Of a stretch of 64,000 bases of DNA, positions 5,652-49,133 are shown one piece after another; the stretch's first letter is position 1; every line of letters begins with the position of its first letter. The DNA comes from Vicinamibacterales bacterium. Lineage in GTDB: Bacteria > Acidobacteriota > Vicinamibacteria > Vicinamibacterales > CAVVIG01. Made by a program: the position numbers and the translations under genes. The stretch spans positions 33,319 to 97,318 of the forward strand of contig DATFWL010000130.1 in assembly GCA_035259385.1 (NCBI GenBank), in the 5' to 3' direction. The notes beneath the pieces are model-generated. The model saw nothing but the letters and a program-made list of their open reading frames with translations, was not told the DNA's origin and did not search any database.

Positions 5652-5680
5652 TTTCGAATTAAGGAAGTAAGAATTCTCAA
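5652..5680. repeat. AT-rich word element (atttcgaattaaggaagtaagaattctcaatt)
   Basis: Same aagaatt/gaattc word family as 13168-13278 and 33007-33106. It fills the entire gap between two convergent stop codons. Confidence 0.75.
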
Positions 5681-10470: not shown

Positions 10471-10638
10471 GGGGCTCGGGGCTGGGGGCTAGCTGTCAGG
10501 GGAGACTGGGACTAGGGGACTGGGGGACTGGAGGACTCCGACTCTAGACGTCGTAGCGCGAAGGCTTCAGCCGAGCGCCCAGCTCGCCCCGAGCCCCCTC
10601 TGAATTCAGCTAGCCCCTAGCCCCCAGTCCCGAGCCCC
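10471..10638. repeat. long composite hairpin: G-rich word arms (ggggctcggggctgggggctagctg / cagctagcccctagcccccagtcccgagcccc) around a GTAGCGCGAAGGCTTCAGCCGAGCG core
   Basis: The arms are imperfect reverse complements. The core matches the REP-like element at 26318-26396. It lies between convergent genes. Confidence 0.85.
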
Positions 10639-11945: not shown

Positions 11946-12043
11946 TTCTGCCTTCCTGCCGTGCTTCCTGCCTTTCTGCCTTCCTGCCCTGAATTCCTGC
12001 CTTCCCGCCTTCCTCCTTCCAGCCTTCCTCCTTCCGGCCTTGC
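11946..12043. repeat. degenerate direct tandem repeat of ctgccttc-type words (about 12 units, pyrimidine-rich strand)
   Basis: Read directly: ttctgccttcctgccgtgcttcctgcctttctgccttcctgccctgaattcctgccttcccgccttcctccttccagccttcctccttccggcc. No opposing arm was seen. It lies between two co-directional genes. Confidence 0.85.
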
Positions 12044-12053
12044 CGTCTCGCTC

Positions 12054-13169
12054 TCAAATGCCAACGAACAGCCGACGCCGGTGCATCTCGACCATCACGA
12101 CGGCCCACAGCCCGACGTACGCGATCGCGTAGGCCAGCGACGCCGCTTCCGCCGGGCGCAGCCACGACGCGAACGTGTGGCGGTAGAGAAACCCCTTCAG
12201 CGTGTCGTCGCCGCCGATGAGCCAGCGCGTCAGCACGCTGTCGAATCCGACCGAGAGAAAATACGCGGCCAGCGGGTTGCGTCCGTACGCGGCGAAGGGG
12301 CGGGACCAGGCGCGCCAGCCGAGCGCGTCGATGAGCCAGTGGCACACGGCCAGCGTCTGCGCCGCCAGCCCCGCGCTGAAGATCGCAAACGAACTGGTCC
12401 ACAGGTTCTTGTTGATCGGCAACACGCGCCCCCACGCGAGGCCGACGCCTGTTGCGACAACGCCGGCGGCGAACAGCCACAGCGATCGGTATGGCACGCG
12501 CGGTTCCTTCAACCAGTCGCCGGCGAAGACGCCGCACAGCGCCGTGGCGATCGCCGGCAGCGTGCTGAGCAGGCCCTCGGGATCGTAGAGCGGCGTCAGC
12601 AGGTGACGCCCGAGGATCGCGCGATCGACGAACGACGCCAGGTTGCCGGCCGGCGTCAGCACGCCGGCGCCGGCGCCCGGGACCGGGACGGCGATCAGCA
12701 GCAGCCAGTAACCGGCGAGCAGCATGGCCGCGGCGGTCACCTGCTGGCGCCACGACGCGAACTCGGTGAGCAATGCGACCGCGGCATAGACGATCGCGAT
12801 CCGCTGCAGGACGCCCGGGATCCGGAAGCTCGCGAACTGCAGCGGCGGCGGCGTCTCGATCGCGTTGAGCACGAGGCCGAGGAGAAAGAGAATCGCCGCC
12901 CGGCGGAACACGTGAATGCGGACGACGCGCGCTTCGCCATGCCGGCGCGCGAGCGCGTAGGGAACCGCCGCGCCCATCGCGAACAGCAGGAACGGGAAGA
13001 CGAGATCGGTCGGCGTCCAGCCATGCCACGCCGCATGATCGAGCGGCGCGTAGACCGCCGTCCACGTGCCCGGTGTGCTGACCAGGATCATCCCGGCAAT
13101 GGTGAGACCGCGGAAGACGTCGAGGGACTCTAAACGAGCGGGTGGATCGCTGATGTGCGGCAACGGCAA
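12054..13169 (-). CDS. acyltransferase family membrane protein (DUF1624/DUF5009, heparan-alpha-glucosaminide N-acetyltransferase-like)
   Basis: LDVFRGLTIAGMILVSTPGTW…HAAWHGWTPTDLVFPFLLFAMG plus about 10 TM segments. The start is uncertain: the longest ORF begins at a TTG inside the AT-rich repeat. Confidence 0.75.
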   Translation of the reverse strand: MPLPHISDPPARLESLDVFRGLTIAGMILVSTPGTWTAVYAPLDHAAWHGWTPTDLVFPFLLFAMGAAVPYALARRHGEARVVRIHVFRRAAILFLLGLVLNAIETPPPLQFASFRIPGVLQRIAIVYAAVALLTEFASWRQQVTAAAMLLAGYWLLLIAVPVPGAGAGVLTPAGNLASFVDRAILGRHLLTPLYDPEGLLSTLPAIATALCGVFAGDWLKEPRVPYRSLWLFAAGVVATGVGLAWGRVLPINKNLWTSSFAIFSAGLAAQTLAVCHWLIDALGWRAWSRPFAAYGRNPLAAYFLSVGFDSVLTRWLIGGDDTLKGFLYRHTFASWLRPAEAASLAYAIAYVGLWAVVMVEMHRRRLFVGI

Positions 13170-13278
13170 TTAAGAATTAAGAAGTAAGAATTAAGAATTC
13201 GTGAACACGGCTCTCCGCTGCCGATTGTCTTGACAGCGTGCCACGAATTCTTAATTCTTAATTCCTAATTCTTAATTG
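13168..13278. repeat. AT-rich word hairpin (arms aattaagaattaagaagtaagaattaagaattcgtg / cacgaattcttaattcttaattcctaattcttaatt)
   Basis: About 35-nt arms built from 7-nt aagaatt words with GAATTC at the inner ends. A GC-normal loop of about 40 nt. Same family as 33007-33106 and 5652-5680. Confidence 0.9.
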
Positions 13279-13285
13279 CGCGCGA

Positions 13286-14275
13286 TCAGTAATCGCAGAC
13301 GTTCCGCCTGATGGGGAGCGTCACGCGCACCGAGGCCGGGCGGGAGAATACCTCGTTCGAGCGGGCGAAGCCGTCGAGAAACCAGTCCATCACGTGCATC
13401 TGCGTCTTGTACTTGCCCAGCGCCGTGCGCTTGGTCCTCGTCTCGGCTGGAGTCAGCGGGAAGCGCAGCCAGCCCGAGACGCCGCCGCGCAGCCCTGGCG
13501 GCGGAGCCAGCCGCGTCTCCTCGTCCTCGAACGGCCACGAGTAGAAATGCACGATGTAGTTCAGCACGTCGGCGGAGAAATCGGGCTGCACCCGCTTCAC
13601 GTCGGTGAAGGCGTCGGCGAGGAAGAACCACGCCGCGCAGTGATCGGCATGCTGATCTTCCTTGCGTGGCACGACGATCATCGTCGGCTTGAAGTCGGCG
13701 ATGATCAGCGCCAGTTCCTGCGAGAGATCCTCGCCGCGATACCTGGTGTCGGGCACGACGATCTCCGACTTCGGCGGCCGATCCTGCTTCGTATACGGAG
13801 ATCGATACGCCGCCCGGCGTTCCGACCAGTAGGTGCGCATCAGTTTCGCGAGGCCGCCGTCGGGGAAGCCGAGGAACGTGTACGACGCCTTGTCGAGCCC
13901 GAGCGCCAGCAGCGCGTTCCGCGCCTCGCGCCGCCGTTGGCGGCCGTAGCCGCGGTAATCGGTCGGGGCGGGCGACTCGACGTGGTCCTCGGTCTTCACG
14001 CCCTCGGGGTAGCCATCGCCGTCGGTGAGGTACACCACGTTGACGCGCCCGCCAGTCTCGTGGACCCGTTCCATCAGGCCGCCTGCGCCGAGCGTCTCGT
14101 CGTCCGGATGGGGCGCGACGACGAGAAGGCGGGTCTGGGGCGGCACCTCGAGCGTCGGCGGTGGCTGATAACGTCGCGCGGCATGTCGCCGGCCACTGGC
14201 GGTCAGGTCCTTCGGCGAGCACAGCAGCCCTACAGCAATCGCCGTAACTGCTGACAGACGCACTATTCCCGTCAT
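13286..14275 (-). CDS. PIG-L family deacetylase (LmbE-like)
   Basis: LLVVAPHPDDETLGAGGLM…VVYLTDGDG… and HADH motifs. There is a 4-nt overlap with the upstream BNR gene. Confidence 0.85.
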   Translation of the reverse strand: MTGIVRLSAVTAIAVGLLCSPKDLTASGRRHAARRYQPPPTLEVPPQTRLLVVAPHPDDETLGAGGLMERVHETGGRVNVVYLTDGDGYPEGVKTEDHVESPAPTDYRGYGRQRRREARNALLALGLDKASYTFLGFPDGGLAKLMRTYWSERRAAYRSPYTKQDRPPKSEIVVPDTRYRGEDLSQELALIIADFKPTMIVVPRKEDQHADHCAAWFFLADAFTDVKRVQPDFSADVLNYIVHFYSWPFEDEETRLAPPPGLRGGVSGWLRFPLTPAETRTKRTALGKYKTQMHVMDWFLDGFARSNEVFSRPASVRVTLPIRRNVCDY

Positions 14276-17244
14276 CTCACGGTAGAGGTGAGCAATCGGC
14301 GTACCCGCGTTTCGAGCGCGGCGACCGCGGTTGTCGCCTGCCGCGTGGGGGCGCGATCTGCACCTTCCACGACGTCGTACGCGGTGGCGAGGTCGGTGTT
14401 CACAGCTTCCAGTGCCTTATCGGATCGACCGGGTGCCGGCTGTTGGGCGCCTTCCGACGGCGCCTGCCGGCCGCTTGCGGCGAACGTTTGATTCATCAAG
14501 TCGGCGAGTTTGGTTGCGAGCGTGAACTGCTGGGTGAGTCCAAGCGCGTTGATTGTGGCACGCGGATCCATTTTCAGGGTCAACGGTTGCGTCAGTGTCG
14601 TCCCGTCAGCGGTCAGTTTCACCGTATACAGCCCTGGCAGCGCGAGCACCCCAAGCGGCTCGAGCGGCGTGTCGCGGTAGATCGCCGAAATCGGGAAGTC
14701 GCGCTGAACGGCGCCTGGCCGAGGGTAGCGCAGGTCCCACACGAACCGATGCATGCCCTTCGATGCCGGCAGCGTCCGCAGGGGACGCGCCCAGTACATC
14801 GGCACGTTGATCGCCCTCTCGTCGTACGGCTCCGGTTTGTCGTCGCTCGAATAACGACGGACGAGTCGCCCGGCTGAAGCCGTCGCGCCGCGACTGTAGA
14901 TTTCGAGCGTCACGGGACCGCGCGCGTCGCTCGCCAGGTAGTAGTCGATCACCGCGCCGTCGGGCGGATTTTGAGCGGCGGGCACTTCCGGCGGCAGCGG
15001 CGTGTCGGTGTTCTGGTTGCGGCGCAGGCGATAGGCGACGGCCGGTTTGAAGAGGATCACCGGACGCGCGGAGGCTTCAGCCGAGCGTCCGATCTGCCGC
15101 AGCGGCGTGATGTTGTCGAGGATCCAGAAACCGCGGCCGTGCGTCGCGACGGCGACATCGTCCCCATGGACGATCAGATCGCGCACCGACGTGTGCGGGA
15201 GGTTCAGGGTGATCGACTGCCAGCTGTCGCCGTCGTCGAACGAGACGTACACGTCACGCTCGGTGCCTGCGAAGAGCAGGCCGCGCGTCGCCGGATCTTC
15301 ACGGACGACGTTGACCGGCGCGGTGTCGGCGAGGCCGCGTGTGATCTTCGTCCACGACTTTCCCCCGTCTCGCGTGCGGAAGACGAGCGGCGTCAGATCG
15401 TCCACGCGGAACCGCGAGACCGAGATGTACGCGGTCGCCTGATCGAAGTGCGACGCGTCGATCTGCGTGACCTTGCTCCATGCGCTCAGCTCGGGCGGCG
15501 TGACGTTGGTCCAGGTTGCGCCGCCGTCCCGCGTCACGTGCACGGCGCCGTCGTCAGAGCCGGTCCAGATCACGTTCACGTTGAGCGGCGAGGGGCCGAT
15601 CGCATAGATCACGCCGCGGTGCTCGGCCTTCCGCGCATCGTCGAGATAGACGCCGAGCGATGGCGGCACGCCCGGATTGGCACGGGACAGGTCTCCGCTG
15701 ATCTTCGTCCAGCTCCGTCCGCCGTTGAGGGTCTTGTAGAGAAACTGGGTCGCGTAGAGCAGGAGGTGCGGATCGGCCTTCGAGAACAGGACCGGTGCCG
15801 TGCGAACGAACCGATCCGCGCCGCCGCGGACGACGATCGGACCGACGTTCTGCACCTCGCCGGTGCGCTCGTCGTAGCGCGTCACCTTGCCTCCGTAGAC
15901 GATGCCGGGGTGCAACGGATCCGGTGCCGCATAGCCGTACTCCTCGAGGCCGACTGGATGCCACTCGCGGAAGGTGATCTCGCCGTAGTCGCTGCGCGAG
16001 GCGACGCCTGCCGATCCGCTTTCCTGCTGCCCGCCGTACAGCCAGTACGGGAAGCGATTGTCGGCGGCGACGTGGAACATCTGTGCCGTCGGCTGGTTGT
16101 ACCACGAACTCCACGTCTCGCCGCCGTTGACGGTGATGGTTGCGCCCTGATCGGCGGCAATCAGGATGATGCGCGGATTGGTCGGGTTGATCCAGATCGT
16201 ATGGTAGTCGTCGCCGCCGGGCGCGCCCTTGATCGCGGTGAACGTCCGTCCGCCGTCCGTCGATCGATAGGTGGACGTGTTGGCCGCATAGACGATATCG
16301 GCGTTCGTGGGATCGACGCGCACGTTCGCGAAGTCGTCGCCGCGGCCCCAGACGCGTGCCTCCGTGTTCACCTGATTCCAGGTCGCGCCCGCGTCATCCG
16401 AGCGATAGAGCCCGGACGTGCGCGCGGTGACCCAGGCGTAGATGCGCTGCGGATTGGCTGGTGCGATGCCGATGCCGATGCGGCTCAACCCGTCGGCGCG
16501 CGTCGGCAGACCGCGCGTCAGCGGCTGCCATGTCGATCCGCCGTCGGTCGACTTGTAGAGACCGCTCGCCGGACCGGCGTAGGCGTTGTCGTATTCCCAC
16601 GGTCCCTGGCGGGCCGCCCAGAGGACCGCGTAGACCGCCTGCGCGTTCGACGGATCGAACACGAGGTCGATCGCCCCGGTGTCGTCGTCGCGGAACAGCA
16701 CCTTCTCGAAGGTTCGTCCGCCGTCGGTCGATCGGAACACGCCGCGTTCGGGATTGGCGCCGTAGGGGTGGCCGAGGGCGGCCACGAACAGGCGATTCGG
16801 GTCGCCCGGATCGACGATGGCCGCGCCAATCTGCCGCGCGTCGCGCAGGCCGAGGTGCTGCCACGTCAGACCGGCGTCGGTCGACTTGTAGATGCCGTCG
16901 CCGACCGAGAGATCGGGACGCTGCAGACCTTCGCCGCTGCCGACGTAGACGATGTTCGGGTCGGAGGGCGCGACGGCAATCGTTCCGATCGACTGTGTCG
17001 GCTGATCGTCGAAGATCGGTGTCCAGGTGGATCCGTAGTCGGTCGTTTTCCACACGCCGCCGTTGTTGACGCCGATATAGAAGACGTTCGGTTGCTGCGC
17101 GACCCCGGCCGCGCCGACAGTCCGCCCGCCGCGAAATGGGCCGACGTGTCGCCACCTGAGGTCGGCGTACACCGACGGGTCGACGCCTTGTGCGGTCGCA
17201 ACGACAGCTGCGGCCGCGAAAACGGCAGTGAGAAATGTGCGCAC
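14272..17244 (-). CDS. sortilin/VPS10-type BNR (Asp-box) repeat protein, secreted
   Basis: 990 aa. Signal peptide. Many Asp-box repeats (S/T-x-D-x-G-x-T/S-W: KTTDYGSTW, KSTDAGLTW, RSTDGGRTF, KSTDGGSTW, RSDDAGATW, TRDGGATW, TRDGGKSW, SFDDGDSW). Confidence 0.9.
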   Translation of the reverse strand: MRTFLTAVFAAAAVVATAQGVDPSVYADLRWRHVGPFRGGRTVGAAGVAQQPNVFYIGVNNGGVWKTTDYGSTWTPIFDDQPTQSIGTIAVAPSDPNIVYVGSGEGLQRPDLSVGDGIYKSTDAGLTWQHLGLRDARQIGAAIVDPGDPNRLFVAALGHPYGANPERGVFRSTDGGRTFEKVLFRDDDTGAIDLVFDPSNAQAVYAVLWAARQGPWEYDNAYAGPASGLYKSTDGGSTWQPLTRGLPTRADGLSRIGIGIAPANPQRIYAWVTARTSGLYRSDDAGATWNQVNTEARVWGRGDDFANVRVDPTNADIVYAANTSTYRSTDGGRTFTAIKGAPGGDDYHTIWINPTNPRIILIAADQGATITVNGGETWSSWYNQPTAQMFHVAADNRFPYWLYGGQQESGSAGVASRSDYGEITFREWHPVGLEEYGYAAPDPLHPGIVYGGKVTRYDERTGEVQNVGPIVVRGGADRFVRTAPVLFSKADPHLLLYATQFLYKTLNGGRSWTKISGDLSRANPGVPPSLGVYLDDARKAEHRGVIYAIGPSPLNVNVIWTGSDDGAVHVTRDGGATWTNVTPPELSAWSKVTQIDASHFDQATAYISVSRFRVDDLTPLVFRTRDGGKSWTKITRGLADTAPVNVVREDPATRGLLFAGTERDVYVSFDDGDSWQSITLNLPHTSVRDLIVHGDDVAVATHGRGFWILDNITPLRQIGRSAEASARPVILFKPAVAYRLRRNQNTDTPLPPEVPAAQNPPDGAVIDYYLASDARGPVTLEIYSRGATASAGRLVRRYSSDDKPEPYDERAINVPMYWARPLRTLPASKGMHRFVWDLRYPRPGAVQRDFPISAIYRDTPLEPLGVLALPGLYTVKLTADGTTLTQPLTLKMDPRATINALGLTQQFTLATKLADLMNQTFAASGRQAPSEGAQQPAPGRSDKALEAVNTDLATAYDVVEGADRAPTRQATTAVAALETRVRRLLTSTVR

Positions 17245-17261
17245 GACCGAATTATGACGTG

Positions 17262-17345
17262 ACGCTCGGCTAAAGCCTCGCGCTACGCCGTAGAAGCTGG
17301 CGCTTCTCGCGCGGTGCAGCTAGCCCCCAGCCCCGAGCCCCGACT
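17262..17345. repeat. composite element: reversed GTAGCGCGA-type core plus gcagctagcccccagccccgagcccc arm
   Basis: aagcctcgcgctacg is the reverse complement of the REP-like core. cagctagcccccagccccgagcccc is the exact reverse complement of the left arm at 10471-10495. Confidence 0.8.
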
Positions 17346-26311: not shown

Positions 26312-26317
26312 CGAATG

Positions 26318-26396
26318 GACGTAGCGCGAAGGCCTTGGCCGAGCGACCGTGTGATCGCGGCCCGCTGACACTCGGCTGAAGCCTTCGCGCTACGTC
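26318..26396. repeat. REP-like hairpin with perfect 16-nt arms GACGTAGCGCGAAGGC / GCCTTCGCGCTACGTC
   Basis: Read directly. The inner part also pairs (ggccgagcg … cactcggc). The right arm plus flank is near-identical to the core at 10553-10578. Confidence 0.9.
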
Positions 26397-26480
26397 GATA
26401 CGGAAAATCCGCGCAGCGGCGGGCAACGACGCGTTCGACGTCTGTGCGTGGCTGCTGCCAGAGTGGACAATGCTCTAGTC

Positions 26481-29400
26481 ATGGAAGTGCTGGTCCTGTT
26501 CGCCGTGCTGATCGTGGCGTTTCCGTATGTGGCTGCGATCGTGAACTGGGGGCGAACGGCAGACCTGCGCCGACGTCTCGCCGACCTCGAGGAGCTGTCG
26601 CGCCGGCAGGAAGCGGCGATCGCTGCGCTCACGCAGCGCCTGCGGGAGGCGAAAGCAGCGGCCGCACCGCCGGCGGCCGCTGAGCCGCGTGCGGCAGCTC
26701 CACAGGCGCTGCCGCCGGTGCCGGTCGTTCCGAAGCAGACGGCGCCGCCGGCCCCGCCGCGTGTTGTTGAGCCGGCTGAGCCGCCCCCAGCCGTCGCGCA
26801 GCCGTCGCTCGTGCCGCCGACAGCTGCGAAGCCGGCGGCGACGCCGTCAGTTCCGCCGGTGACACCAGCCGCCGCGCCGCCGGCCGCCGCGGCGCGACCG
26901 CCAGTCGCACCGCCGCCGCCGCCGCTGCCTCCGCCGCCTCCGCGACCACCGGCGCGCGAGCCGTTCGACTGGGAACGGGTCGTCGGCGTCAAGATGTTCT
27001 CAGCGGTCGCCGGCGTCGCGCTCGTGCTGGCGGCGGTGTTCTTCCTCCGCTACTCCATCGACCATGGATGGCTCGCGCCGCCGGTTCGGGTCGCGATCGG
27101 CGTGCTCGTCGGCATCGGGCTCCTGATCGCGTGCGAGCTCCGCGCCGCGCGAAAATATCCGGTGACGGCGAACGCGCTCGATGCCGCGGCGATCGCGATC
27201 CTCTTCTCGACGTTCTTCGCCGCTCACGCGCTCTGGCAGCTGATTCCAGCGACGGCGGCCTTCGGCCTGCTCGCGCTCGTCACCGGTGTCGCCGTGCTGC
27301 TGTCGATCCGGCGCGACTCGGTGTTCATCGCGCTGCTCGGGCTGCTCGGCGGCTTCGCGACGCCGATGCTGTTGTCCACCGGCGAGAACCGGCCGGTGCC
27401 GCTGTTCGCGTACCTGCTGCTCCTGAACCTCGGCCTCGCGTGGGTCGCCGCCCGGAAGCGGTGGCGGCTGCTGACGATCCTCAGCATCGCCTTCACGACG
27501 TTCTACCAGTGGGGCTGGGTGATCACCTTTCTCACCGCGAGCCAGCTGCCGCTGGCGATGGGCGTCTTCCTCGTCTTCTCGCTGACCGGCTTCGCGTCGA
27601 TTCTGTTCACTGCCCCGGCCGCGCCGTCGACGGAGACGCCGGCGCTCGCGCGGGCAGGCCTTGCCGCGGCGGCGATGCCGCTCGTGTTTGCCGCCTATCT
27701 CGCTGCGGTGCCCGGATACGGCGCGCAACCGGGCCTCCTGTTCGGATTCCTCCTGATCGTGGACGCCGGCCTCTTCGCGGTCACGGTCTGGCGCCGCGAT
27801 CCCTGGGCGCATGCGCTCGGCGCCGTGGCCGCCGGCGTCGTGTTCGCGACGTGGCTCGCGGTGTCGTACGCGCACGGCGCCTGGACCATCGCCATCGGGT
27901 TCGCCTCGGCCTTCATCGTCTTCTTCGCGCTGGCGCCGAGGCTTGCGGTGCGCGCGGGCCGGCCGCTCGAGGGACTGTCCGCTCGCGCCATCTACGCCGC
28001 GCCGATGCTGCTGTTCGTCTTCACCGCGATCGCGCGGATTGAGCCGGCGGCCGACGCGCCGGCCCGCCTGTTTGCGCCGATGCTCGCGCTGCTCGGCGTC
28101 ATCACGTGGCAGGCGTTCGCACGCCGCGAGTTCCCGCTGTACTACCTGGCTGCGTTCTTTGCCGTCGTGTCCGAGGCAGCGTGGTCGGCGGCGCATCTCA
28201 CGTCCGATCACCTGCGCGCGGCCATCGCCGTGTACGCGGCCTTCGGCATCCTCTACATCGGCGTGCCGGTGGCCGCCAGGCGCGCACGCGTGACGATGAC
28301 GCCGCGGTGGGGCGGCGGCGTGGTACTGATTGCCAGCCTGCTGCTGCTCCTGTATCTCGCCGAGGGCGCGCACGCGGCGGCAGCGTTGTGGGGACTCGCG
28401 TTCCTGCTCGCCATCCTCAACGCAGGGCTCTTCGTCGAGAGCGCCTCGGGCGAACTGCCTGCGTTGTCGGTCGTCGGCGGCGGCGTCTCGTGGTTCGTGC
28501 TCGCGATCTGGTGGGGCAATGCTGCGGCCGCGGTCGGCCTCCTGCCGTCGCTGCTCTTCCTCGTCATGTTGACGTTGACGATGCTCGTCGGCTACGGGTG
28601 GAGTCACCGCCAGGCACGCAGCCGGAGCGATTTCGACCCGTCGCGGTCTGGATTCCGACCCGGCGCGTACCTGGGATTGATCGGCTACCTGTTCTTGTTC
28701 GCGATCGCGATCGATCCCGAATGGTCGGTGCCGCCATGGCCGTTGTTCGGTGCGCTCGCCGTGATGACGCTGGCGCTCACGACGACGTCGCTCGCAGTGG
28801 ACTCGAGCCAGCTGCACGGCGCGGGCGTGGCGGCGGCGGCCATCGTGGTGTTCGCATGTTCAGTGGTCGCGGGCGCTCCGTGGGGGCCGACCCTGGTGGC
28901 GGCCGCGGAGGTCGTCGCCGCCTACGCGCTGGCCTGGGTGGCGGTGATGCGGGCGCGCGGATCGTGGCGGTTCGCCGCGGCGGGCGCGATCTGGACGCTC
29001 TTCATGGCGAGCCTGACGCTCGGCGAAGCGTCCGGCGCGTCCACGTCCATGCCGGTCGCGATCGTGGCGATCGTCGCCGCCGCAAACGTCGCGTTGATAT
29101 TCGCGAGCGCGTGGTCCGCGCGGTGGGAGTGGGTCGCTCCGTCAGCGGTGGTCGCCGCCTGGTGGGTCGAGACTGCGTGGCATGAGCAGCACATCCGCAC
29201 GATGGACTGGTCGGGGTCGTTCGCGCTCGCGCTCGTCCTGTACGCCGTCTTCGTCGCCTATCCGGTCGTGCTCGGACACCGCGCCCGGACGTCGCGGGAT
29301 CCGTACATCGCGGCGATTGCCGGCAGCGCGCTGTTCTTCTTCACCGGGCGCACCGCGCTCGTGCAGGGCGGCTACGGTCAGTTCGTCGGCGCCGTCCCGG

Positions 29401-30200
29401 TGCTCGAAGGCGCGGTCAGCGCATTGCTGCTGCGCCAGCTGCTGCGCATCGAACCCAGCGGATCGCGCGACCTCGGCCGGCTCGCGCTGGTCGCCGGCGC
29501 GTCGCTCGCGTTCGTCACGGTCGCGATCCCGCTGCAGCTCCACAATCAGTGGATCACGATCGGCTGGGCGCTCGAGGGCGCGGCGCTCGCCTGGGTGTAT
29601 CGCCGCGTCCCGCACCGCGGGTTGCTCTACTGGTCGTTCGCGCTGCTCGCCGCCGTGTTCGCGCGGCTGGCGCTGAACCCGGCGGTGTTCGTTTACGAGC
29701 CGCGCGGCCTTCGCGTGTTCAACTGGTACCTGTATGCGTACGCGGTCTGCGCGGCAGCGATGTTCGTGGCGGCGTGGTGGCTCGCCACGACCGACGATCG
29801 GATCCTGTCGCTGCCGCGGGCGTCGCGGCTGCTGCCGGCGGCGGCGGTGATCCTGCTGTTCCTGCTCCTGAACATCGAGATCGCCGACTTCTACGCGACC
29901 GGCCGCGAAATCGCGTTCCGCTTCGGCGTGACGCTGGCGCAGGACCTCACCTACACGATCGGCTGGCTGGCGTTCGGCATGCTGCTGCTGACCGGCGGCA
30001 TCTACCTGCGGAACCAGCCGGCGCGCGTCACCGCCGTCGCATTGATCGCGATCACGGCGTTCAAGGCATTTCTGTACGACACCGGGTCGCTCGGCGGCCT
30101 CTATCGCGTCGGCTCGCTCGTCGGCCTCGCGGTGTCGCTGTCGCTCGTCGCGCTCGCGCTCCAGAAGTTCGTCCTGCATCCATCGGAAGGTCGCGCCTGA
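26481..30200 (+). CDS. DUF2339 domain-containing polytopic membrane protein
   Basis: N-terminal TM segment, a coiled coil (RRRLADLEELSRRQEAAIAALTQRL), a Pro/Ala-rich linker, then more than 25 TM segments, the architecture I associate with DUF2339. The start may instead be GTG 26448. Confidence 0.7.
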   Translation: MEVLVLFAVLIVAFPYVAAIVNWGRTADLRRRLADLEELSRRQEAAIAALTQRLREAKAAAAPPAAAEPRAAAPQALPPVPVVPKQTAPPAPPRVVEPAEPPPAVAQPSLVPPTAAKPAATPSVPPVTPAAAPPAAAARPPVAPPPPPLPPPPPRPPAREPFDWERVVGVKMFSAVAGVALVLAAVFFLRYSIDHGWLAPPVRVAIGVLVGIGLLIACELRAARKYPVTANALDAAAIAILFSTFFAAHALWQLIPATAAFGLLALVTGVAVLLSIRRDSVFIALLGLLGGFATPMLLSTGENRPVPLFAYLLLLNLGLAWVAARKRWRLLTILSIAFTTFYQWGWVITFLTASQLPLAMGVFLVFSLTGFASILFTAPAAPSTETPALARAGLAAAAMPLVFAAYLAAVPGYGAQPGLLFGFLLIVDAGLFAVTVWRRDPWAHALGAVAAGVVFATWLAVSYAHGAWTIAIGFASAFIVFFALAPRLAVRAGRPLEGLSARAIYAAPMLLFVFTAIARIEPAADAPARLFAPMLALLGVITWQAFARREFPLYYLAAFFAVVSEAAWSAAHLTSDHLRAAIAVYAAFGILYIGVPVAARRARVTMTPRWGGGVVLIASLLLLLYLAEGAHAAAALWGLAFLLAILNAGLFVESASGELPALSVVGGGVSWFVLAIWWGNAAAAVGLLPSLLFLVMLTLTMLVGYGWSHRQARSRSDFDPSRSGFRPGAYLGLIGYLFLFAIAIDPEWSVPPWPLFGALAVMTLALTTTSLAVDSSQLHGAGVAAAAIVVFACSVVAGAPWGPTLVAAAEVVAAYALAWVAVMRARGSWRFAAAGAIWTLFMASLTLGEASGASTSMPVAIVAIVAAANVALIFASAWSARWEWVAPSAVVAAWWVETAWHEQHIRTMDWSGSFALALVLYAVFVAYPVVLGHRARTSRDPYIAAIAGSALFFFTGRTALVQGGYGQFVGAVPVLEGAVSALLLRQLLRIEPSGSRDLGRLALVAGASLAFVTVAIPLQLHNQWITIGWALEGAALAWVYRRVPHRGLLYWSFALLAAVFARLALNPAVFVYEPRGLRVFNWYLYAYAVCAAAMFVAAWWLATTDDRILSLPRASRLLPAAAVILLFLLLNIEIADFYATGREIAFRFGVTLAQDLTYTIGWLAFGMLLLTGGIYLRNQPARVTAVALIAITAFKAFLYDTGSLGGLYRVGSLVGLAVSLSLVALALQKFVLHPSEGRA

Positions 30201-32275
30201 TGAGAGCCGTCATGAAGATCGCCGCGCTGGGTGTCGCCGCCGCGACCGCTGCCGTCGCTGCGCAGCCCGCCGCGACACCGCCCCCCTTCCGCTTCGAGCG
30301 GCCGGTGACCGGTGGCGGCGGACCGCGGCGGCTGGCGATCGACCTGCCGCTGCTCGCGGGCGCGGCGCCGTTCCGCACGTCGGTCCGCGTCGGAACGCAG
30401 TCGTCGGGCTCGCTGCGCAGCGTGAACGCGTCCGACGGCCTGCGCGATCTCAGGTTCTACGACGCCGGTGGTGCCGAGGTCGGCTACGTGCTCGTCGCGG
30501 TGCCGACACCGGAGCCGGTGTTCAAGCCGGCGACGATTCGACCGATTGCGCCGGTCGAGACCGACACCGTGAAGACGAGCGGCTTCGAAGCCGATCTCGG
30601 TGAGCCGCTGCTGATCGATCGCGTCGACGTCGAGGGGCTCAGCGCGCCGTTTCTGAAGCGCGTGACGCTCGAGGGCAGCGGCGATCGCAGCCGCTGGACC
30701 GTGCTCGTGGCCGACGGCACGCTGTTCGATCTGCCCGACGAGCGGCTCCGCCATACGATGCTGCGTTTCGCGCCAGGGACGTTCCGGTATCTCCGGCTGA
30801 CCTGGGACGATCGCCACAGCGCGCGCATCGTCCAGACGCCGACGGCTGCGGCCGGAACCCTGCCGACGGCGCCGCCGCCGCCGTTGACGGCCGCCATGTC
30901 GTTCGAGCGGCGTCCGAGCGAGCCGGGACGCAGCCGGTTTCGCATCAACCTGCCGGCGGGCCACCTGCCGATCGCCGCGCTCGAGCTCGACGCCGGCGGC
31001 GGCCACATCCTGCGCGAGGCGCGCGTCTTCGAGCAGCAGCTGACGGCGGCGCAGCTTGCGCCGCGGCTGCTCGGCCGCGCCACGCTTCGCCGCGTCGTGC
31101 GCGACGACGTGACCGCCTCGGCGCTGCAGCTGCCAATCGATCCGCCAACCGAGGCGCAGCTCGATCTCGAGGTGGACGACGAGGACAATCCGCCGCTCGA
31201 TCTGCGCGGGGTCACCGCCGTGTTCGCCGAGCTGCCGTGGATCTATCTCGAGGCGCCGGCCGGCGGCCTCACCGCGCGCTACGGCAACAGCACGCTCGCC
31301 GCGCCGCACTACGATCTCGAGGCCGAGCGCAGTCAGATTCGCATCGAGGCGATCGCCGACGCGTCGTGGGGCGAGCCGCGCGCGCGCAGCGAGGACGAGA
31401 ACGCGCGGCCGGCGCCGCCGCTTCCGACCTTTGGCGCCTCGCTCGACCTCGGCCTGTTCACCTACGTCCGCGCGGTGCCTGCCGGCGAGGCCGGCCTGAT
31501 CGCGCTGCCGCTCGACGTGCAGGTGCTGGCGCACTCCGCCGGCGTCGGCCGTCGGTTCAGCGATCTGCGCGTGGTGGACGATGCCGATCGCCAGATTCCG
31601 TATCTGCTCGAACAGCTTGCGGAGCCGCTGTCGGTGGACGTGGCGCTCGAGCACGTCGCGTCTGCGCCAGCGACGCTGCCTGCCGTGCGATCCGGCCGCA
31701 GCGTGTACCGGCTGACGTATCCGGCCGAGGATCTGCCGCCGGCGCGGCTGGTGATGACCACGCCGGCGCGCGTGTTCGACAGGCGGGTGACGCTCGGCGA
31801 GCAGCGCGATCGCGACGCCCGCCGCCGCGATCCATGGTTCCAGATGCTGGGCACGGCAGCGTGGCGTCACTCGGATCAGGATCGGCCGGCGCGCCCGCTG
31901 ACGATCGATCTCGCGCCGCCGCGGTCGCGCGACCTCTTCGTCCTCGTCGACGAGGGCGACAACACACCGCTGCCGATCGAGTCTGCGCGCCTGCTGCTGC
32001 CCTCGTACCGGATCCGCCTGTATCGGGGGACCGGCACGGCGCTGCGGGTCGCCTACGGCCGTCGCGATCTGCCGCCGCCGCAGTACGATCTCGCGCTGCT
32101 CGCGCCGCAGGTGCTCGGGGCGTCCGCGCGCGAAGTGCGCCTCGACAGCGAACACGCGGTCGCGGCGGCGGCGCAGGCGTCGGCACTCGTGTCGGCGCGC
32201 TTCTTCTGGATCGCGCTGGCCCTCGCCGTCGTCGTGCTCGTCGGGTTCATCGTCCGGCTGCTGCGCCAGGCGTAG
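30200..32275 (+). CDS. DUF3999 family protein (secreted, C-terminal TM anchor)
   Basis: The ATG overlaps the DUF2339 stop (ATGA type). Signal peptide MRAVMKIAALGVAAATAAVAAQ. C-terminal TM segment FFWIALALAVVVLVGFIV. DUF3999 assignment rests on recalled pairing with DUF2339 and on the architecture. Confidence 0.55.
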   Translation: MRAVMKIAALGVAAATAAVAAQPAATPPPFRFERPVTGGGGPRRLAIDLPLLAGAAPFRTSVRVGTQSSGSLRSVNASDGLRDLRFYDAGGAEVGYVLVAVPTPEPVFKPATIRPIAPVETDTVKTSGFEADLGEPLLIDRVDVEGLSAPFLKRVTLEGSGDRSRWTVLVADGTLFDLPDERLRHTMLRFAPGTFRYLRLTWDDRHSARIVQTPTAAAGTLPTAPPPPLTAAMSFERRPSEPGRSRFRINLPAGHLPIAALELDAGGGHILREARVFEQQLTAAQLAPRLLGRATLRRVVRDDVTASALQLPIDPPTEAQLDLEVDDEDNPPLDLRGVTAVFAELPWIYLEAPAGGLTARYGNSTLAAPHYDLEAERSQIRIEAIADASWGEPRARSEDENARPAPPLPTFGASLDLGLFTYVRAVPAGEAGLIALPLDVQVLAHSAGVGRRFSDLRVVDDADRQIPYLLEQLAEPLSVDVALEHVASAPATLPAVRSGRSVYRLTYPAEDLPPARLVMTTPARVFDRRVTLGEQRDRDARRRDPWFQMLGTAAWRHSDQDRPARPLTIDLAPPRSRDLFVLVDEGDNTPLPIESARLLLPSYRIRLYRGTGTALRVAYGRRDLPPPQYDLALLAPQVLGASAREVRLDSEHAVAAAAQASALVSARFFWIALALAVVVLVGFIVRLLRQA

Positions 32276-32283
32276 AGGCGCGG

Positions 32284-33000
32284 CTACGCCGGGCGATCGC
32301 AGATCGTCCCGAACGCGAACCCTTTCGCACGCAGCTCCGGAATGAGGCGGGCGGCGGCTTCGACCGTGTGGCGCTGATCGGCGAACGGGGCCGACTCGTC
32401 GCCGTCGTGCATCACGATGATGTCGCCGTTCGACACGCGCGGAGCGATCCGGTTGACCACGGAATCAGCGGTGCGCGGCCGGAACCAGTTCCAGTCCCAC
32501 AGCATCCAGCTCCAGCCGATCAGGCGGTGATCGATCTGTTCGAGACCCTGGTACATCGGCCAGCTGCGCCAGCCGGCGTGCGGACGGAACGCCGGGCACG
32601 GGCGATAGCCGGCGACGTGCTCGATGTGATCGGCGGCGGCGATCAGCGTCTGCGCGAACGTGCGGGCGCTCATCAGCATGTAGGCGCGCGTGGCCGAGTG
32701 CAGCGCGACCGCATGGCCGTCGACGAACATCCGCCGGACCAGTTCGGCAGTCTGCTCCGTGACGTGCCGATCGATCAGGAAGAAGGTCGCACGCGTCCGC
32801 TCGCGCGCGAGCAGGTCGAGCAGATCCGGCGTGGTCGTCGGGTTCGGCCCGTCGTCGAAGGTGAGATAGATGGTCGGCGGATTGCGCTTCGGCATGTGCC
32901 AGACGACGCGGTCGCCGCTGATCGCGTCGAACAGGAACGGCGCCGGGGCGGTGTGCGCCAGCGCCAGCACGCCGACTGCGACCGCAATGAAGAACCACAT
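32284..33000 (-). CDS. polysaccharide deacetylase family protein (NodB homology domain)
   Basis: TFDDGPNPTTTPDLLDLL…ATFFLI…HSATRAY motifs. Start placed at ATG 32998-33000 (MWFFIAVAVGVLALA). The longest ORF begins at a TTG inside the AT-rich repeat (33012). Confidence 0.85.
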   Translation of the reverse strand: MWFFIAVAVGVLALAHTAPAPFLFDAISGDRVVWHMPKRNPPTIYLTFDDGPNPTTTPDLLDLLARERTRATFFLIDRHVTEQTAELVRRMFVDGHAVALHSATRAYMLMSARTFAQTLIAAADHIEHVAGYRPCPAFRPHAGWRSWPMYQGLEQIDHRLIGWSWMLWDWNWFRPRTADSVVNRIAPRVSNGDIIVMHDGDESAPFADQRHTVEAAARLIPELRAKGFAFGTICDRPA

Positions 33001-33006
33001 CACAGC

Positions 33007-33106
33007 AATCAAGAATTAGGAAGTAAGAATTAAGAATTCGTGGCTCGCATTGTGATGCATCGAAGCACAGGACGAATTCTTAATTCTCAATTCTTACTTC
33101 TTAATT
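33007..33106. repeat. AT-rich word hairpin (aatcaagaattaggaagtaagaattaagaattcgtg … gacgaattcttaattctcaattcttacttcttaatt)
   Basis: Same arm family as 13168-13278 but with an unrelated loop. The right arm supplies the last two codons and stop of the serine hydrolase gene. Confidence 0.9.
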
Positions 33107-34534
33107 TCTCCGTTCCGGCACTCCCGGCATCAGCTCCTCCAGCGCGCGCTTCAATGCCTCCATCCCGCGCCGATCGCCTCGATAATGGCCCATGCGCACG
33201 ACGACCAGATCGTGCGTCGGATCGATGATCGTGCGCTGTCCGCCGGCACCGTTGGCGAAGTATGCCGACTTCGGGAGCGGCCATGCGCCGTCCCCGTTCA
33301 CCCAGAACAAGCCGCCGTACACCGGCTGCTTCCAGGCAGGCGCCGGCGTGCTCACGAACGTCGCCCACCCTTCTGGCAGCAGGCGCTGGCCCTCCCAGAT
33401 GCCGTCCTGCAGATAGAGCTGTCCGATGCGCGCCCAGTTGCGCGCGGTGCCGTAGTCGTAGCCGGTGAGCAGGAAGTTGCCGTACGGATCGGTCTCGAGC
33501 ACCTGACGGCGGATCCCGATGCGATCGAACAGCGCGCGCTGCGGCCACGTCAGGTACTCCTCGCCGCGCCTGGTGACCGCCTGCTTCACGAGCCAGCCGA
33601 TCATCAGCGGATCGGAGTTGCGGTAGCGCCCTTCCGTATTTGGCGGGAACTGCAGCGGGCGCGTCATCGAATGATCGAACGCGTCGATCGCCCCGGTGTA
33701 GATCAGCGTGTGATCGGGGTAGCCCTTGTCGACGCTGTAGTCGGGATCCTGGCCGGCGATGAACCGCAGGCCGCTGCTCATGTGGAGCAGGTCGGCGATC
33801 CGGATCGCTCCGCGCGGATCGCCCGGCTTCCGCCACTCCGGGACCGGCACCGGATCGTCGACCTTGTAAACGCCGTCCTTCACGAGCAGCGCGAACAGTG
33901 TCGCGGTCAGGCTCTTGCCCATCGACCAGCTTTCGAGCTGCGTGTCCTTCGTGATGCCGGGCATGTAGCGCTCGCCGACGATCTGACCCTTGTGGACGAT
34001 CACGACCGCCGCCGTGAGCGCCTCGGGATCGGCGAACGCGAGATCGAGCGCCTTGTCGACGCGCGCGCGATCCATGCCGGTTGGCGCGGCATGCGTCGGC
34101 GGCGCGTCGCCCATCGGCCACGGCTGTGACGCCGCGTCGGGCAGGCGCGTCTTCACCGCGACCGGCGTGAAGGAGATGCCGTCGTGCCCCTCGGGATGGA
34201 TGATGCAGCCCTGATCGCCGTAGAACTTCGCGATGCGCGCGATCGAACCGTGCGTCATCCGCACCAGCTTCTGTGCGCGATCGACCGTGTAGCGGACGCC
34301 GGCGCGATGCTCGTCGGGGAAGAGAAAGTAGCCGCTGTTCGTGAAGGCTTCCGCCGGATCGCGCTCGGAGACGAACACCGCGGAGCACAGCACCTTGGCG
34401 TAACCGGCAAGGCCGAGGCTGAGCGGCGTGATCCCTTCCGGCGCAAAGGCCGCCGGCCGCCGCGGCGCGGCCTGCCGCGCGACTGCCGACGCCGTGAACG
34501 CGACAACGAGCAACAGCAGCGTTAGTTTGCGCAT
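33101..34534 (-). CDS. serine hydrolase, beta-lactamase/transpeptidase-like family
   Basis: Signal peptide MRKLTLLLLVVAFTASAVA. SxxK motif in ESWSMGKSLTATLFALLV. The length and other blocks fit class C / esterase EstB-like proteins. Confidence 0.85.
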   Translation of the reverse strand: MRKLTLLLLVVAFTASAVARQAAPRRPAAFAPEGITPLSLGLAGYAKVLCSAVFVSERDPAEAFTNSGYFLFPDEHRAGVRYTVDRAQKLVRMTHGSIARIAKFYGDQGCIIHPEGHDGISFTPVAVKTRLPDAASQPWPMGDAPPTHAAPTGMDRARVDKALDLAFADPEALTAAVVIVHKGQIVGERYMPGITKDTQLESWSMGKSLTATLFALLVKDGVYKVDDPVPVPEWRKPGDPRGAIRIADLLHMSSGLRFIAGQDPDYSVDKGYPDHTLIYTGAIDAFDHSMTRPLQFPPNTEGRYRNSDPLMIGWLVKQAVTRRGEEYLTWPQRALFDRIGIRRQVLETDPYGNFLLTGYDYGTARNWARIGQLYLQDGIWEGQRLLPEGWATFVSTPAPAWKQPVYGGLFWVNGDGAWPLPKSAYFANGAGGQRTIIDPTHDLVVVRMGHYRGDRRGMEALKRALEELMPGVPERRN

Positions 34535-34590
34535 GGCAGGCTCCTGTGACGTCCGGCTAAGCCCTTGGTTTCAGTCGCGCCGTGATCTGA

Positions 34591-36099: not shown

Positions 36100-36252
36100 G
36101 GACGGGGCCCGGGGCTCGGGGCAAGCTGATGCTCGCCTTCCGTTTCTGGGCGAGCGAACACCGGGGCCGCCGCGCTGTGACAGCTAGCCCCTAGCCCCAG
36201 CCCTTGGCCCCGTCATGCTGTGACAGCTAGCCCCCAGCCCCCCTAGCCCCGA
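36100..36252. repeat. G-rich word hairpin family (gacggggcccggggctcggggcaagctg … cagctagcccctagccccagcccttggccccgtc, plus a second cagctagcccccagcccccctagcccc copy)
   Basis: Arms are imperfect reverse complements. The cagctagcccc… arm is shared with 10607-10638 and 17318-17343. Confidence 0.85.
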
Positions 36253-44244: not shown

Positions 44245-44327
44245 CGGCGGGTCAGGCGGGTCGGGCAGGTCGGGCAGGATGGGACGGACGGGACGGATGG
44301 GACGGATCGGACGGATGGGACAGATGT
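44245..44327. repeat. direct word repeat (gggtcaggc/gggtcgggca, then gggacgga x5)
   Basis: Read directly, immediately after the oxidoreductase stop. If translated it gives GRMGRTGRMGRIGRMG at the head of the longest amidohydrolase ORF. Confidence 0.85.
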
Positions 44328-44359
44328 TGCGGAACGGACTGATGGGGCGGACGGGCAAA

Positions 44360-47758: not shown

Positions 47759-47855
47759 GTCGGGTGGGTCAGGTAGGTCGGTAAGTCAGGTAGGTCGGAT
47801 CAAGGCGTATCCGACCTACAAGGCCGACCCGGCCTACCTGACCTACCCGACCTAC
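47757..47855. repeat. word hairpin (ggtcgggtgggtcaggtaggtcggtaagtcaggtaggtcggat … atccgacctacaaggccgacccggcctacctgacctacccgacctac)
   Basis: About 40-nt arms made of ggtcaggta-type 8-nt words, with a short loop caaggcgt. It spans the whole gap between convergent stops and overlaps both. Confidence 0.9.
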
Positions 47856-49050: not shown

Positions 49051-49133
49051 GCCGCCACGAAGGCACGAAGACGCGAAGAAGACCATTTGAGTACAAAAGT
49101 ATTTTCTTCGCGCCTTCGTGTGTTCGTGGCGGC
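49051..49133. repeat. word hairpin (gccgccacgaaggcacgaagacgcgaagaa … ttcttcgcgccttcgtgtgttcgtggcggc)
   Basis: Arms of about 30 nt built from cacgaag-type words, with an AT-rich loop. It lies between co-directional genes (DAHP synthase stop and NHL start). Confidence 0.9.

Follow-up and report, generated by a model that had tools for sequence, protein, structure and literature searches.

AAGAATT hairpins: a dispersed family of small repeats at gene ends in soil Acidobacteria (Vicinamibacterales)

What are the AT-rich hairpins, with arms built of tandem seven-nucleotide words, that lie between genes in a 64,000-nt stretch of Vicinamibacterales DNA, and how did they come to be there? The stretch (contig DATFWL010000130.1 of assembly GCA_035259385.1, positions 33,319-97,318, forward; its source is a soil metagenome) is referred to below as the window, and coordinates are relative to it unless another locus is named. 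An original prediction had pointed to two long hairpins and one short one, and had proposed a mobile or templated element or a site acting at the level of the RNA. We find all three sites, as two full copies and one collapsed remnant (Table 1), and conclude that the hairpins are real copies of a previously undescribed dispersed repeat family in soil Acidobacteria (Vicinamibacterales), here called the AAGAATT family. A unit of defined length appears at gene 3' ends and operon junctions, persists there and keeps its arms within the family; its centre inverts and is exchanged, and it decays by deletion between the direct AATT/GAATTC micro-repeats common to both arms. The reading that we favour, with a probability of roughly 55%, is that the AAGAATT hairpins are a small non-coding foldback element of ~95-115 bp in the Vicinamibacterales, dispersed and similar to transposable elements of the miniature inverted-repeat type (MITEs) or REPINs.

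Architecture, dispersal and gene context

In both full copies every arm is a period-7 array of 4.6 units, AATTAAG or AATTCTT, as identified by Tandem Repeats Finder, and GAATTC is present at both stem-loop junctions; the 7-nt words and the junction sequence of the original prediction are therefore confirmed. A repeat search gave arms of 38 nt in each copy, 95% complementary around a 38-nt loop in copy 1 and 84% complementary around a 30-nt loop in copy 2. Of the arms, the remnant retains words of the left one and a single word of the right one, with the GAATTC junction between them. Allowing up to three mismatches, the 15-mer AAGAATTAAGAATTC has 13 matches in the window against 0.09 expected, with 13/13 falling inside the three sites, and no other copy of the family came up there when short AT-rich stretches were scanned for. 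The AT content is 78-84% in the arms, 64-66% over whole elements and 40-43% in the loops, compared with 32% for the window, and the predicted local value of about 75% lies between those of the arms and of the whole elements. The RNA of copy 1 is predicted to fold with an energy of -66.8 kcal/mol (z = -10.6).

Since independent Logan contigs from several soil runs reproduce arms and loop exactly, the hairpins are not an artefact of assembly. The family was also found in metagenome-assembled genomes (MAGs) of different studies and in metagenomes of the Joint Genome Institute. Together with the 13 matches where 0.09 were expected, this refutes an artefact of assembly or of chimera formation, as well as a chance palindrome, to the point where we attach next to no probability to it.

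A single strict gapped pattern, scanned against one genome per species, matched 32 loci, of which 29 lie in MAGs of four species of Acidobacteriota, so that the arms do recur in related genomes, a check that had been proposed. Vicinamibacterales SMAG_U9522 has 14 of them, MFD09212.bin.2.142 ten, gp6 AA45 four and a Terriglobia MAG a single diverged one. The remaining 3/32 matches are in AT-rich genomes and were set aside as chance, and the arm pattern had no match in viral contigs. The family collection used below comprises 35 copies, taken from several soil metagenomes and from no fewer than four acidobacterial MAGs.

These copies share one plan. The outer end is (C)AATT, followed by four or five NNGAATT words, a junction palindrome AAGAATTCGT...ACGAATTCTT and a centre of 10-80 nt, giving elements of 76-130 bp with termini CAATT...AATTG and arms of 32-38 nt that are 84-95% complementary. 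Counted as uninterrupted words, the number is four in 41/70 arms and five in 14/70. Stops occur in all six frames, with TAA within 24 nt in the arms. Single arms also exist, and in L015 (1901-1944; L-numbers denote loci retrieved from other genomes or metagenomes) such an arm leads directly to a GTG start. Complementarity is 94-100% at loop positions one and two but no better than random by position four; with so sharp a boundary between arm and centre, the centre is not a decayed palindrome and that origin was ruled out.

The centres are GC-normal and weakly structured (mean z = -0.64, p = 0.004). Next to one arm they carry a short module, GTCGTCACGCTG / CAGCGTGACGAC (also given as CAGCGTGAC), which is common to many non-orthologous copies with pairwise scores that beat every shuffle; it begins with CGTC and in a few copies (L016) is followed by a 7-bp hairpin. 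From this module the centre would appear to descend from one shared internal sequence. In the window the two loops are GC-normal and mutually unrelated, as originally described, but across the family the loops are not unrelated, as they have this module beside one arm.

The ends of the element are visible in metagenomes, for which Logan contigs of soil runs were aligned to the window. The arms of copy 1 reach a summed word depth of 500-2200 against 3-40 for the flanks and the loop, and overall the arms stand at 50-100 times the depth of flanks that are heterogeneous. At 13166-13168 and 13277-13279 a large number of unrelated contigs stop exactly, and these breaks define the ends of the element. 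Copy 2 behaves in the same way with respect to depth and contig ends.

Genes around the copies were called with a caller based on GC content at third codon positions, with doubtful cases checked by listing the open reading frames (ORFs). Among 26 classifiable junctions 14 are convergent, 11 co-directional and one divergent (L003), where one or fewer divergent junctions would be expected with p ~0.005 if a quarter were divergent. The adjacent gene 3' ends (n = 39) have the stop inside an arm in ~22 cases and nearly all of the others within 17 nt, and the gap is filled almost exactly by the element. In co-directional pairs the downstream gene starts 0-50 nt past the outer end, usually <15 nt, which means that transcription must pass through the hairpin.

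The context predicted for the window sites holds: both long copies lie between co-directional genes and the short one is a whole convergent gap. Copy 1 is between minus-strand genes for a PIG-L deacetylase (13286-14275) and, downstream, a DUF5009/HGSNAT-like acyltransferase; its right arm is 6 nt from the TGA stop of the former and the outer end of its left arm overlaps the probable TTG start region of the latter. Copy 2 is between minus-strand genes for a beta-lactamase-family hydrolase (33101-34534) and a polysaccharide deacetylase, its left arm abutting the start of the second (ATG at 33001 or TTG at 33012). The remnant makes up the entire 29-nt gap between the convergent TAA stops of an amidohydrolase gene and an NHL-repeat gene. 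By Pfam, the neighbours of the window copies and of the lone arms are ordinary enzymes and transporters, with no transposase among them. At copy 1 the ATG start of the acyltransferase in L033-L036 (GAATGAGCGA) reads ATC in the window (CACATCAGCGA; 13150-13170, minus strand), and in the window all in-frame starts upstream of the conserved RLESLD motif are TTG codons, one of them made by the terminal AATTG of the element. Judged by these codons, the element may now provide the start codon of the acyltransferase. An exact look-up of the PIG-L protein of the window returned no record.

Table 1. Positions of the three AAGAATT sites and of sites of a second word-hairpin family
Feature	Locus	Position	Sequence or remark
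Copy 1, left arm	window	13166-13203	GC-AATT-AAGAATT-AAGAAGT-AAGAATT-AAGAATT-CGTG
Copy 1, central non-palindromic region (loop)	window	13204-13241	60% GC; right end is the degenerate family module GACAGCGTGCC
Copy 1, right arm	window	13242-13279	CACG-AATTCTT-AATTCTT-AATTCCT-AATTCTT-AATT-GC
Copy 2, left arm	window	33004-33041	AATC-AAGAATT-AGGAAGT-AAGAATT-AAGAATT-CGT
Copy 2, loop	window	33042-33071	unrelated to the loop at the orthologous SMAG_U9522 site
Copy 2, right arm	window	33072-33109	contains the TAA stop (33101-33103) of the beta-lactamase-family gene
Collapsed remnant	window	5652-5680	CGAATT-AAGGAAGT-AAGAATTC-TCAATT; no loop
Second family	window	49051-49133	
Second family	L035	2738-2832	
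Second family	L041	3230-3316	
Second family	L098	4580-4856	
Second family	L099	3376-3500	

Presence, decay and exchange at orthologous junctions

As had been proposed as a check, the presence of the element was compared among relatives, and it varies at orthologous junctions. A metagenome scan with the PIG-L protein as query gave 63 loci orthologous to copy 1 with conserved synteny from PIG-L to acyltransferase. Besides the window, the element is present only in the closest of these, L033, L034 and L035 (82-84% amino-acid identity). In L036 (79%) the junction holds only the 15-bp GCAATTAGGAATTGC, and ~50 more distant loci are without the element, having either a coupled stop and start (e.g. 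CAGTAGATGACC) or unrelated small GC-rich hairpins. In the flank-identity tree, ((L033, L034), L036), (window, L035), the position of L036 is nested, and its 15-mer is thus a deletion remnant, of the same character as the short copy in the window. Such collapses are to be expected because AATT and GAATTC are self-complementary, so that the inverted arms share direct micro-repeats. Other small GC-rich hairpins or short word repeats were noticed at the stop of the PIG-L gene in loci that lack the AAGAATT element (L039-L042, L053, L060, L086), for example GGCACCGCTTCAGCGGTGCC in L060 and repeats of ACGCGGAG in L040.

For copy 2, L025 of SMAG_U9522 is orthologous to 29115-34563 with 87-89% nucleotide identity and has an element at the same place. 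The arms are conserved; the loops are of unequal length and align in neither orientation. As to a flip of the whole element between the two, the direct and the flipped comparison fit equally well, with 7 differences each. The inner words of the arms at the copy 1 site have changed in concert, being AAGAATT on both arms in the window and TGGAATT on both in L033-L035, and L033 additionally has a compensated word pair, TGGCATT/AATGCCA.

Different families of word hairpins succeed one another at the same gene ends. The junction between the amidohydrolase and NHL-repeat genes, which has the AAGAATT remnant in the window, holds two tandem CACGAAG-word hairpins in an 89% relative (L098, also from SMAG_U9522), one in an 85% relative and half of one in an 82% relative; in 79% relatives it is an 18-nt empty spacer. 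Downstream of the acyltransferase gene, CACGAAGA hairpins are found in L035 and L041 and AAGGCAGG hairpins in L037 and L082, of which the window has half of the latter. The variety at these two junctions indicates that gene ends are repeatedly occupied and reoccupied, and at the PIG-L junction, too, hairpins are repeatedly placed by something. In L098 (4580-4856) the hairpins form two tandem composite units of ~135 nt, each a CACGAAG hairpin with a tail GGGAGACCGAAGGGCGCCCGCAGG..CACAGTCGTGATCT, from which it follows that word hairpins can also duplicate in tandem.

How the copies are related to each other can be read from their arms. Over the variable stem positions of 23 ungapped copies, no excess of compensation within elements was found (271 Watson-Crick pairs compared with 274 expected, p = 0.74). 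The same asymmetric mismatches recur, namely A.C/G.U at -19 in 16/23 copies, G.A/C.U at -15 in 8/23 and TG opposite AA at -13/-12 in 12/23. This recurrence argues for descent from a few founders and against either growth in situ or strong selection for perfect pairing. Subfamilies can also be distinguished, the GAAGT word occurring in 12/16 copies of SMAG_U9522 and the window as against 1/15 of MFD09212 and AA45, and the TGGAATT word in 8/15 copies of these last two.

The existence of two recombinant haplotypes, AAGAAGT/AGGAATT and AAGAATT/AGGAAGT, and of the loop module on either side relative to the marked arm would fit with inversions that have crossovers inside the arms. The loops of L033 and L034 align over 35 nt without gaps at 83% identity, and do so in inverted orientation only (z = 7.9, compared with 5.4 for a gappy direct alignment). 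As to an invertase-driven phase switch (inverton), no joints from a switch of the loop strand were seen in the aligned metagenome contigs for this segment of 30-70 bp, and no invertase was found nearby. Exchange of a loop is seen at the level of the strain. One soil run (X4) contains a 441-nt contig that is identical to the window over both arms of copy 2 and 326 nt of flank, and its 11 substitutions and 3 indels all lie within the loop, at 33043-33070. The reconstructed loop, GTGATTCCAATTTCGACGCCCGCAGACAGCGTGAC, carries the family module, and runs X2 and X3 carry the loop of the window. The simplest reading of these contigs would be ectopic conversion, for which the identical arms supply the homology, or a renewed insertion at that site; conversion would also account for the concerted change of the arms and for orthologous loops that cannot be aligned.

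Possible origin and role of the hairpins

If the AAGAATT hairpins are a small foldback element, a few master elements would have been copied by an enzyme acting in trans. An IS200/RAYT-type (TIRYT) tyrosine transposase would be the most plausible candidate, given the absence of a target-site duplication and the hairpin nature of the element, and the arms would in addition be homogenised by ectopic gene conversion between copies. Survival almost only at gene ends would then be explained by the stops in all six frames together with selection against insertions in promoters. When transcribed, the 35-bp A/U-rich stem with its conserved mid-stem internal loop would be at most a 3'-end or intercistronic hairpin, which might protect against exonucleases, be a target of RNase III or act as a partial bidirectional terminator. 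An upstream stop within the 5' arm would let terminating ribosomes melt the stem and free the region before the next start, and this could keep the ancestral translational coupling of the adjacent genes. The mobile element of the original prediction is supported by the dispersal, the presence and absence at orthologous junctions, the subfamilies and the strain-level turnover of loops. The templated one is not, as captured or templated loops are ruled out by the common module and by differences that follow no directed mutation pattern.

Several results weigh against this reading. The proposed check for target-site duplications was negative, no direct repeat flanking any of the 35 copies beyond the palindromic extension (G)CAATT...AATTG(C), though a duplication within AATT would be hidden. 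Neither the copies nor the lone arms have a transposase gene beside them. In the 0.6 Mb of retrieved DNA, tblastn gave no match to IS200 TnpA, E. coli RAYT or any of six acidobacterial TIRYT proteins, and neither these 0.6 Mb nor viral contigs showed a longer autonomous element (a parent insertion sequence) carrying these arms. No pair of copies at different loci has a whole loop in common, so that very recent transposition is undocumented, and a clean empty site in a very close relative was not obtained. Furthermore, arms and pairing are kept at orthologous sites over ~12-20% flank divergence, including the compensated pair of L033, and this retention could equally mean selection for the hairpin at the level of the host. 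As for the candidate enzyme, a profile search for Y1 transposases gave 8000 matches, the top 120 of which are near the Terriglobia queries and none attributable to Vicinamibacterales; the one locus inspected has no word repeats, and an exact look-up of the Koribacter TIRYT P0123 gave no record.

Selection by the host is the core of an alternative in which the hairpin is an RNA element, that is a bidirectional terminator, a stabiliser of mRNA 3' ends or an RNase III site, and its spread is secondary. This would agree with the strong bias to convergent and co-directional junctions and the near exclusion from divergent gaps, with orthologous arms and pairing that are kept while loops drift, with the compensated word pair of L033, with the weak structure of the loops and with the hairpins of other families at the same junctions in other lineages. 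Arms are also found in RNA-derived contigs, soil metatranscriptome contigs aligned on L018 giving a few low-depth arm matches embedded in longer contigs (no RNA runs containing the window are listed), and in Xanthomonas transcripts start or stop more often at analogous arrays (PMC4692102). A terminator-like consensus, in which a GC stem runs directly into a U run, is however absent. Around copy 1 scans for sigma-70 promoter and terminator consensus sequences found nothing, and Rho-independent terminators numbered 0 in 12900-13500, the stem being A/U-rich, the loop 30-38 nt and no U run lying beyond the outer end; Rfam had no match in the window at the gathering threshold. The genes close downstream must be read through, the insertion went into an operon junction that was ancestrally coupled, and the conserved mid-stem mismatches have not been purged, with no compensation across the family. 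Orientation is random relative to transcription, the G.U and A.C counts by strand at co-directional copies (10 vs 6) do not differ significantly, and a structural role leaves the retention of the exact heptamer sequence unexplained. We consider an element primarily selected by the host unlikely, though the favoured reading, too, would have the element tolerated and perhaps of some use as a hairpin in the RNA.

That the sequence itself is retained is what a protein-binding array would account for. Here one nucleic-acid-binding protein would sit on each 7 nt and the hairpin would be a switch controlled by binding. On the U-rich RNA arm the candidates would be S1 or a cold-shock/OB-fold protein, and on the AT-rich DNA gyrase or a nucleoid protein. 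The core GAATT is conserved across genomes beyond the needs of pairing, and the period is 7 nt. On heptamer repeats CspB binds as one molecule per heptamer, preferably to T-rich ones (as reviewed in PMC4679880), and the single arm of L015 lies immediately upstream of a start codon. A protein that binds the arms was not found, however, and copying of master elements with gene conversion explains the conservation equally well. In the same genomes, sibling families are built of GC-rich 7-9-nt words, which a single binder cannot explain, and we give the binding array very little credence. A broader proposal, itself quite doubtful, is that the word foldbacks are a lineage-wide system, with arms as handles for recombination or recognition, loops as exchangeable cassettes and an enzyme that installs, flips and swaps them at gene ends, for instance a HUH tyrosine transposase of the acidobacterial TIRYT type working on hairpins once extruded. 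In a variant of this proposal one OB-fold/cold-shock protein per heptamer could open and close the 35-bp RNA stem, which could gate termination or the translational coupling of the neighbouring genes. Also disfavoured, and in our view hardly credible, is that the arms are ordinary simple-sequence repeats, the heptamers having arisen by polymerase slippage in situ with inverted pairs as a by-product. In many high-GC and cyanobacterial genomes heptamers are indeed the commonest of the long simple repeats (Mrazek 2007, summarised in PMC4679880), near-identical plain AAGAATT arrays follow stop codons in cyanobacterial plasmids, and many other arrays of period 7-9 nt are present in these acidobacterial loci. 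Against slippage, the number of units is nearly constant (four or five words in 55/70 arms, and the same number in orthologous copies), the termini are fixed, the non-repeat junction palindrome and the loop module are common to unrelated loci, the same asymmetric word haplotypes recur in many copies, and the element is whole or absent at orthologous junctions.

Other word hairpins and known repeat systems

The AAGAATT family belongs to a wider class of hairpins made of 7-9-nt words at the gene ends of Vicinamibacterales, in which it stands out most. A second dispersed family (Table 1) has GC-rich CACGAAGA arms of period 8-9 and a conserved AT-rich loop with GTACAAA or GAATTC, and was noticed in several genomes, at junctions where other lineages carry AAGAATT elements. 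Downstream of the acyltransferase gene, the window (11950-12041) has a word array of CTTCCTGC / AAGGCAGG with a central GAATTC, which is one arm only of a full hairpin of ~200-240 nt at the orthologous positions of L037 (3363-3603) and L082 (5104-5306); on the minus strand it presents purine-rich GGAAGG repeats just upstream of the start of an MFS transporter gene. A hairpin of 9-nt words, GTAGGTCGG / CCGACCTAC, occupies a convergent gap at 47751-47855, with the upstream TAG stop within an arm and a centre, GTAGGTCGGATCAAGGCGTATCCGACCTAC, that looks like a GTAG-tagged repetitive extragenic palindromic (REP) sequence. A GTAG-headed palindrome, GTAGCGCGAAGGCTTCAGCCGAGCG, is present in both orientations at 10551-10580, 14867-15087 and 26312-26402, once nested inside the word hairpin at 10471-10638; from its sequence this is likely a classical REP family. 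G-rich heptamers, GGGGCTN / CTAGCCC, mostly form intergenic inverted pairs (10471-10638, 17322-17343 and 36103-36250; L037 4929-5025), their CTAG cores giving TAG stops on both strands, and resemble the G-quadruplex heptamers of Xanthomonas and Nostoc (PMC4692102). Further arrays or hairpins of period 7-9 nt are at 2901-2979, 40487-40533, 43230-43340 and 44246-44355, and for some of these (CCTCCCGCC, GGCGGGTCG, GGATGGGAC) a position within called ORFs, or at their 5' end, is possible.

Vicinamibacterales, one of the most abundant groups of bacteria in soil, have hardly been studied genetically. A high-copy element that gives stops, sometimes start regions, and a 35-bp intergenic hairpin affects gene calling and operon prediction in these genomes, and probably the fate of mRNA as well. 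It also breaks short-read assemblies, Logan contigs ending at the arms. With its reoccupied junctions and strain-level replacement of loops it is well suited to studying ectopic conversion and very rapid turnover between genes, and the conserved arms could be used as strain-typing markers for uncultured Acidobacteria.

The suggestion that no such family had been described is right for the exact sequence, as the arm strings had only chance primer matches in the literature searched; it does not extend to the type, since heptameric intergenic arrays, among them inverted pairs of four units beside stop codons (PMC4692102; PMC4679880), and REP, REPIN and MITE sequences are all described. The family is best filed as a variant of the known small palindromic or heptameric intergenic repeats and not as something categorically new. 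Integron attC sites were ruled out, as core sites (GTTRRRY) are absent and the copies are in conserved housekeeping synteny and also between convergent genes; CRISPR-like arrays, iterons or centromeres and telomere-like repeats were ruled out on architecture and context.

Terminal inverted repeats, small size and a non-coding sequence with stops in all frames are shared with classical MITEs; a target-site duplication flanking the inverted repeats is not. Correia/NEMIS elements of Neisseria and ERIC of enterobacteria (cited in PMC3733652) are MITEs of ~100-150 bp whose terminal inverted repeats fold the whole element into an mRNA hairpin; they lie next to or overlap gene ends and are cut by RNase III or RNase E, altering the stability of the flanking mRNA. 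The AAGAATT copies are likewise small hairpin-forming elements at gene ends, as far as the predicted RNA fold goes. Correia and ERIC differ in having a target-site duplication (TA for Correia), a conserved internal sequence and inverted repeats that are not tandem words. Eukaryotic Foldback (FB) transposons are of kilobase scale, with long inverted repeats made of short tandem repeats around a variable loop, and some have transposase genes; the likeness is one of architecture only.

With heptamer arrays the family shares head-to-tail heptamers in non-coding DNA near gene ends, within 17 nt of stops or overlapping them. Cyanobacterial STRR heptamer direct repeats were reportedly described by Mazel et al. 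in 1990. These and the TAACTGA heptamers (MacGregor 2015, PMC4679880; Nostoc preprint 10.1101/2022.06.06.494920) are also intergenic, with stops in all forward frames, and they abut stop or start codons, with several word families per genome (PMC4679880). Unlike the AAGAATT elements, however, they are direct, variable in length and oriented to start codons, and are not known as insertion units. Plain arrays of closely similar words were noticed on two cyanobacterial plasmids, in each case right after a stop codon: AAGAATT in 5.9 units followed by three of GAGTTTT on Kovacikia minuta plasmid pA (L097 1501-1560), and TAATTCG/TAATTCA in ~4.6 units on Chroococcidiopsis plasmid pB (L096 1501-1535). 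The heptamer is the same as in the acidobacterial arms but forms no hairpin there.

REP and REPIN sequences and the RAYT/TIRYT terminal inverted repeat families (Bertels & Rainey 2011, PMC3116915; Di Nocera et al. 2013, PMC3733652) are short, non-coding, high-copy and extragenic palindromic, as is the AAGAATT family. The similarity to REPINs extends to the inverted doublets, the conserved arms with a less conserved spacer, the convergent or co-directional location, the lack of a target-site duplication and the restriction of families to lineages. A RAYT-like TIRYT group of their own is described for the Acidobacteria; long inverted repeats flank it, and some of these repeats form dispersed families (PMC3733652). 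On the other hand, the AAGAATT arms are tandem heptamers that do not fold on themselves, in place of self-palindromes of 20-40 nt; there is no GTAG tag, only the CGTC at the start of the loop module; and a RAYT/TIRYT gene flanked by the arms was not found.

The nearest described phenomenon, likened by description only, is that of the GGGAATC arrays of Xanthomonas and the GGGGAYT arrays of Nostoc (Rehm et al. 2015, PMC4692102). As in Xanthomonas, an intergenic heptamer with a GAAT core is found in a high-GC host with a strong preference for four units. Xanthomonas genomes have ~185 GGGAATC arrays each, 70-75 of them as close inverted pairs able to form stem-loops; the arrays are ≤50 bp from stop codons or overlap them, are under-represented between divergent ORFs, are mostly transcribed, and vary extensively between close relatives at the same junction (PMC4692102). 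Most of the Xanthomonas arrays are single, however, and run from 2 to 26 units, and the conserved junction palindrome, defined termini, internal module and insertion history of the AAGAATT family are unreported for them (PMC4692102). The Xanthomonas and Nostoc arrays are G-rich and were explained by their authors as forming G-quadruplexes (PMC4692102). This explanation cannot apply to AAGAATT / AATTCTT words, which have no G or C tract. Inverted heptamer arrays of fixed length thus exist at gene ends with no tie to the G-quadruplex, which weakens the current explanation for Xanthomonas and Nostoc, and the AAGAATT family links the heptamer repeats with mobile DNA of the REP and MITE type.

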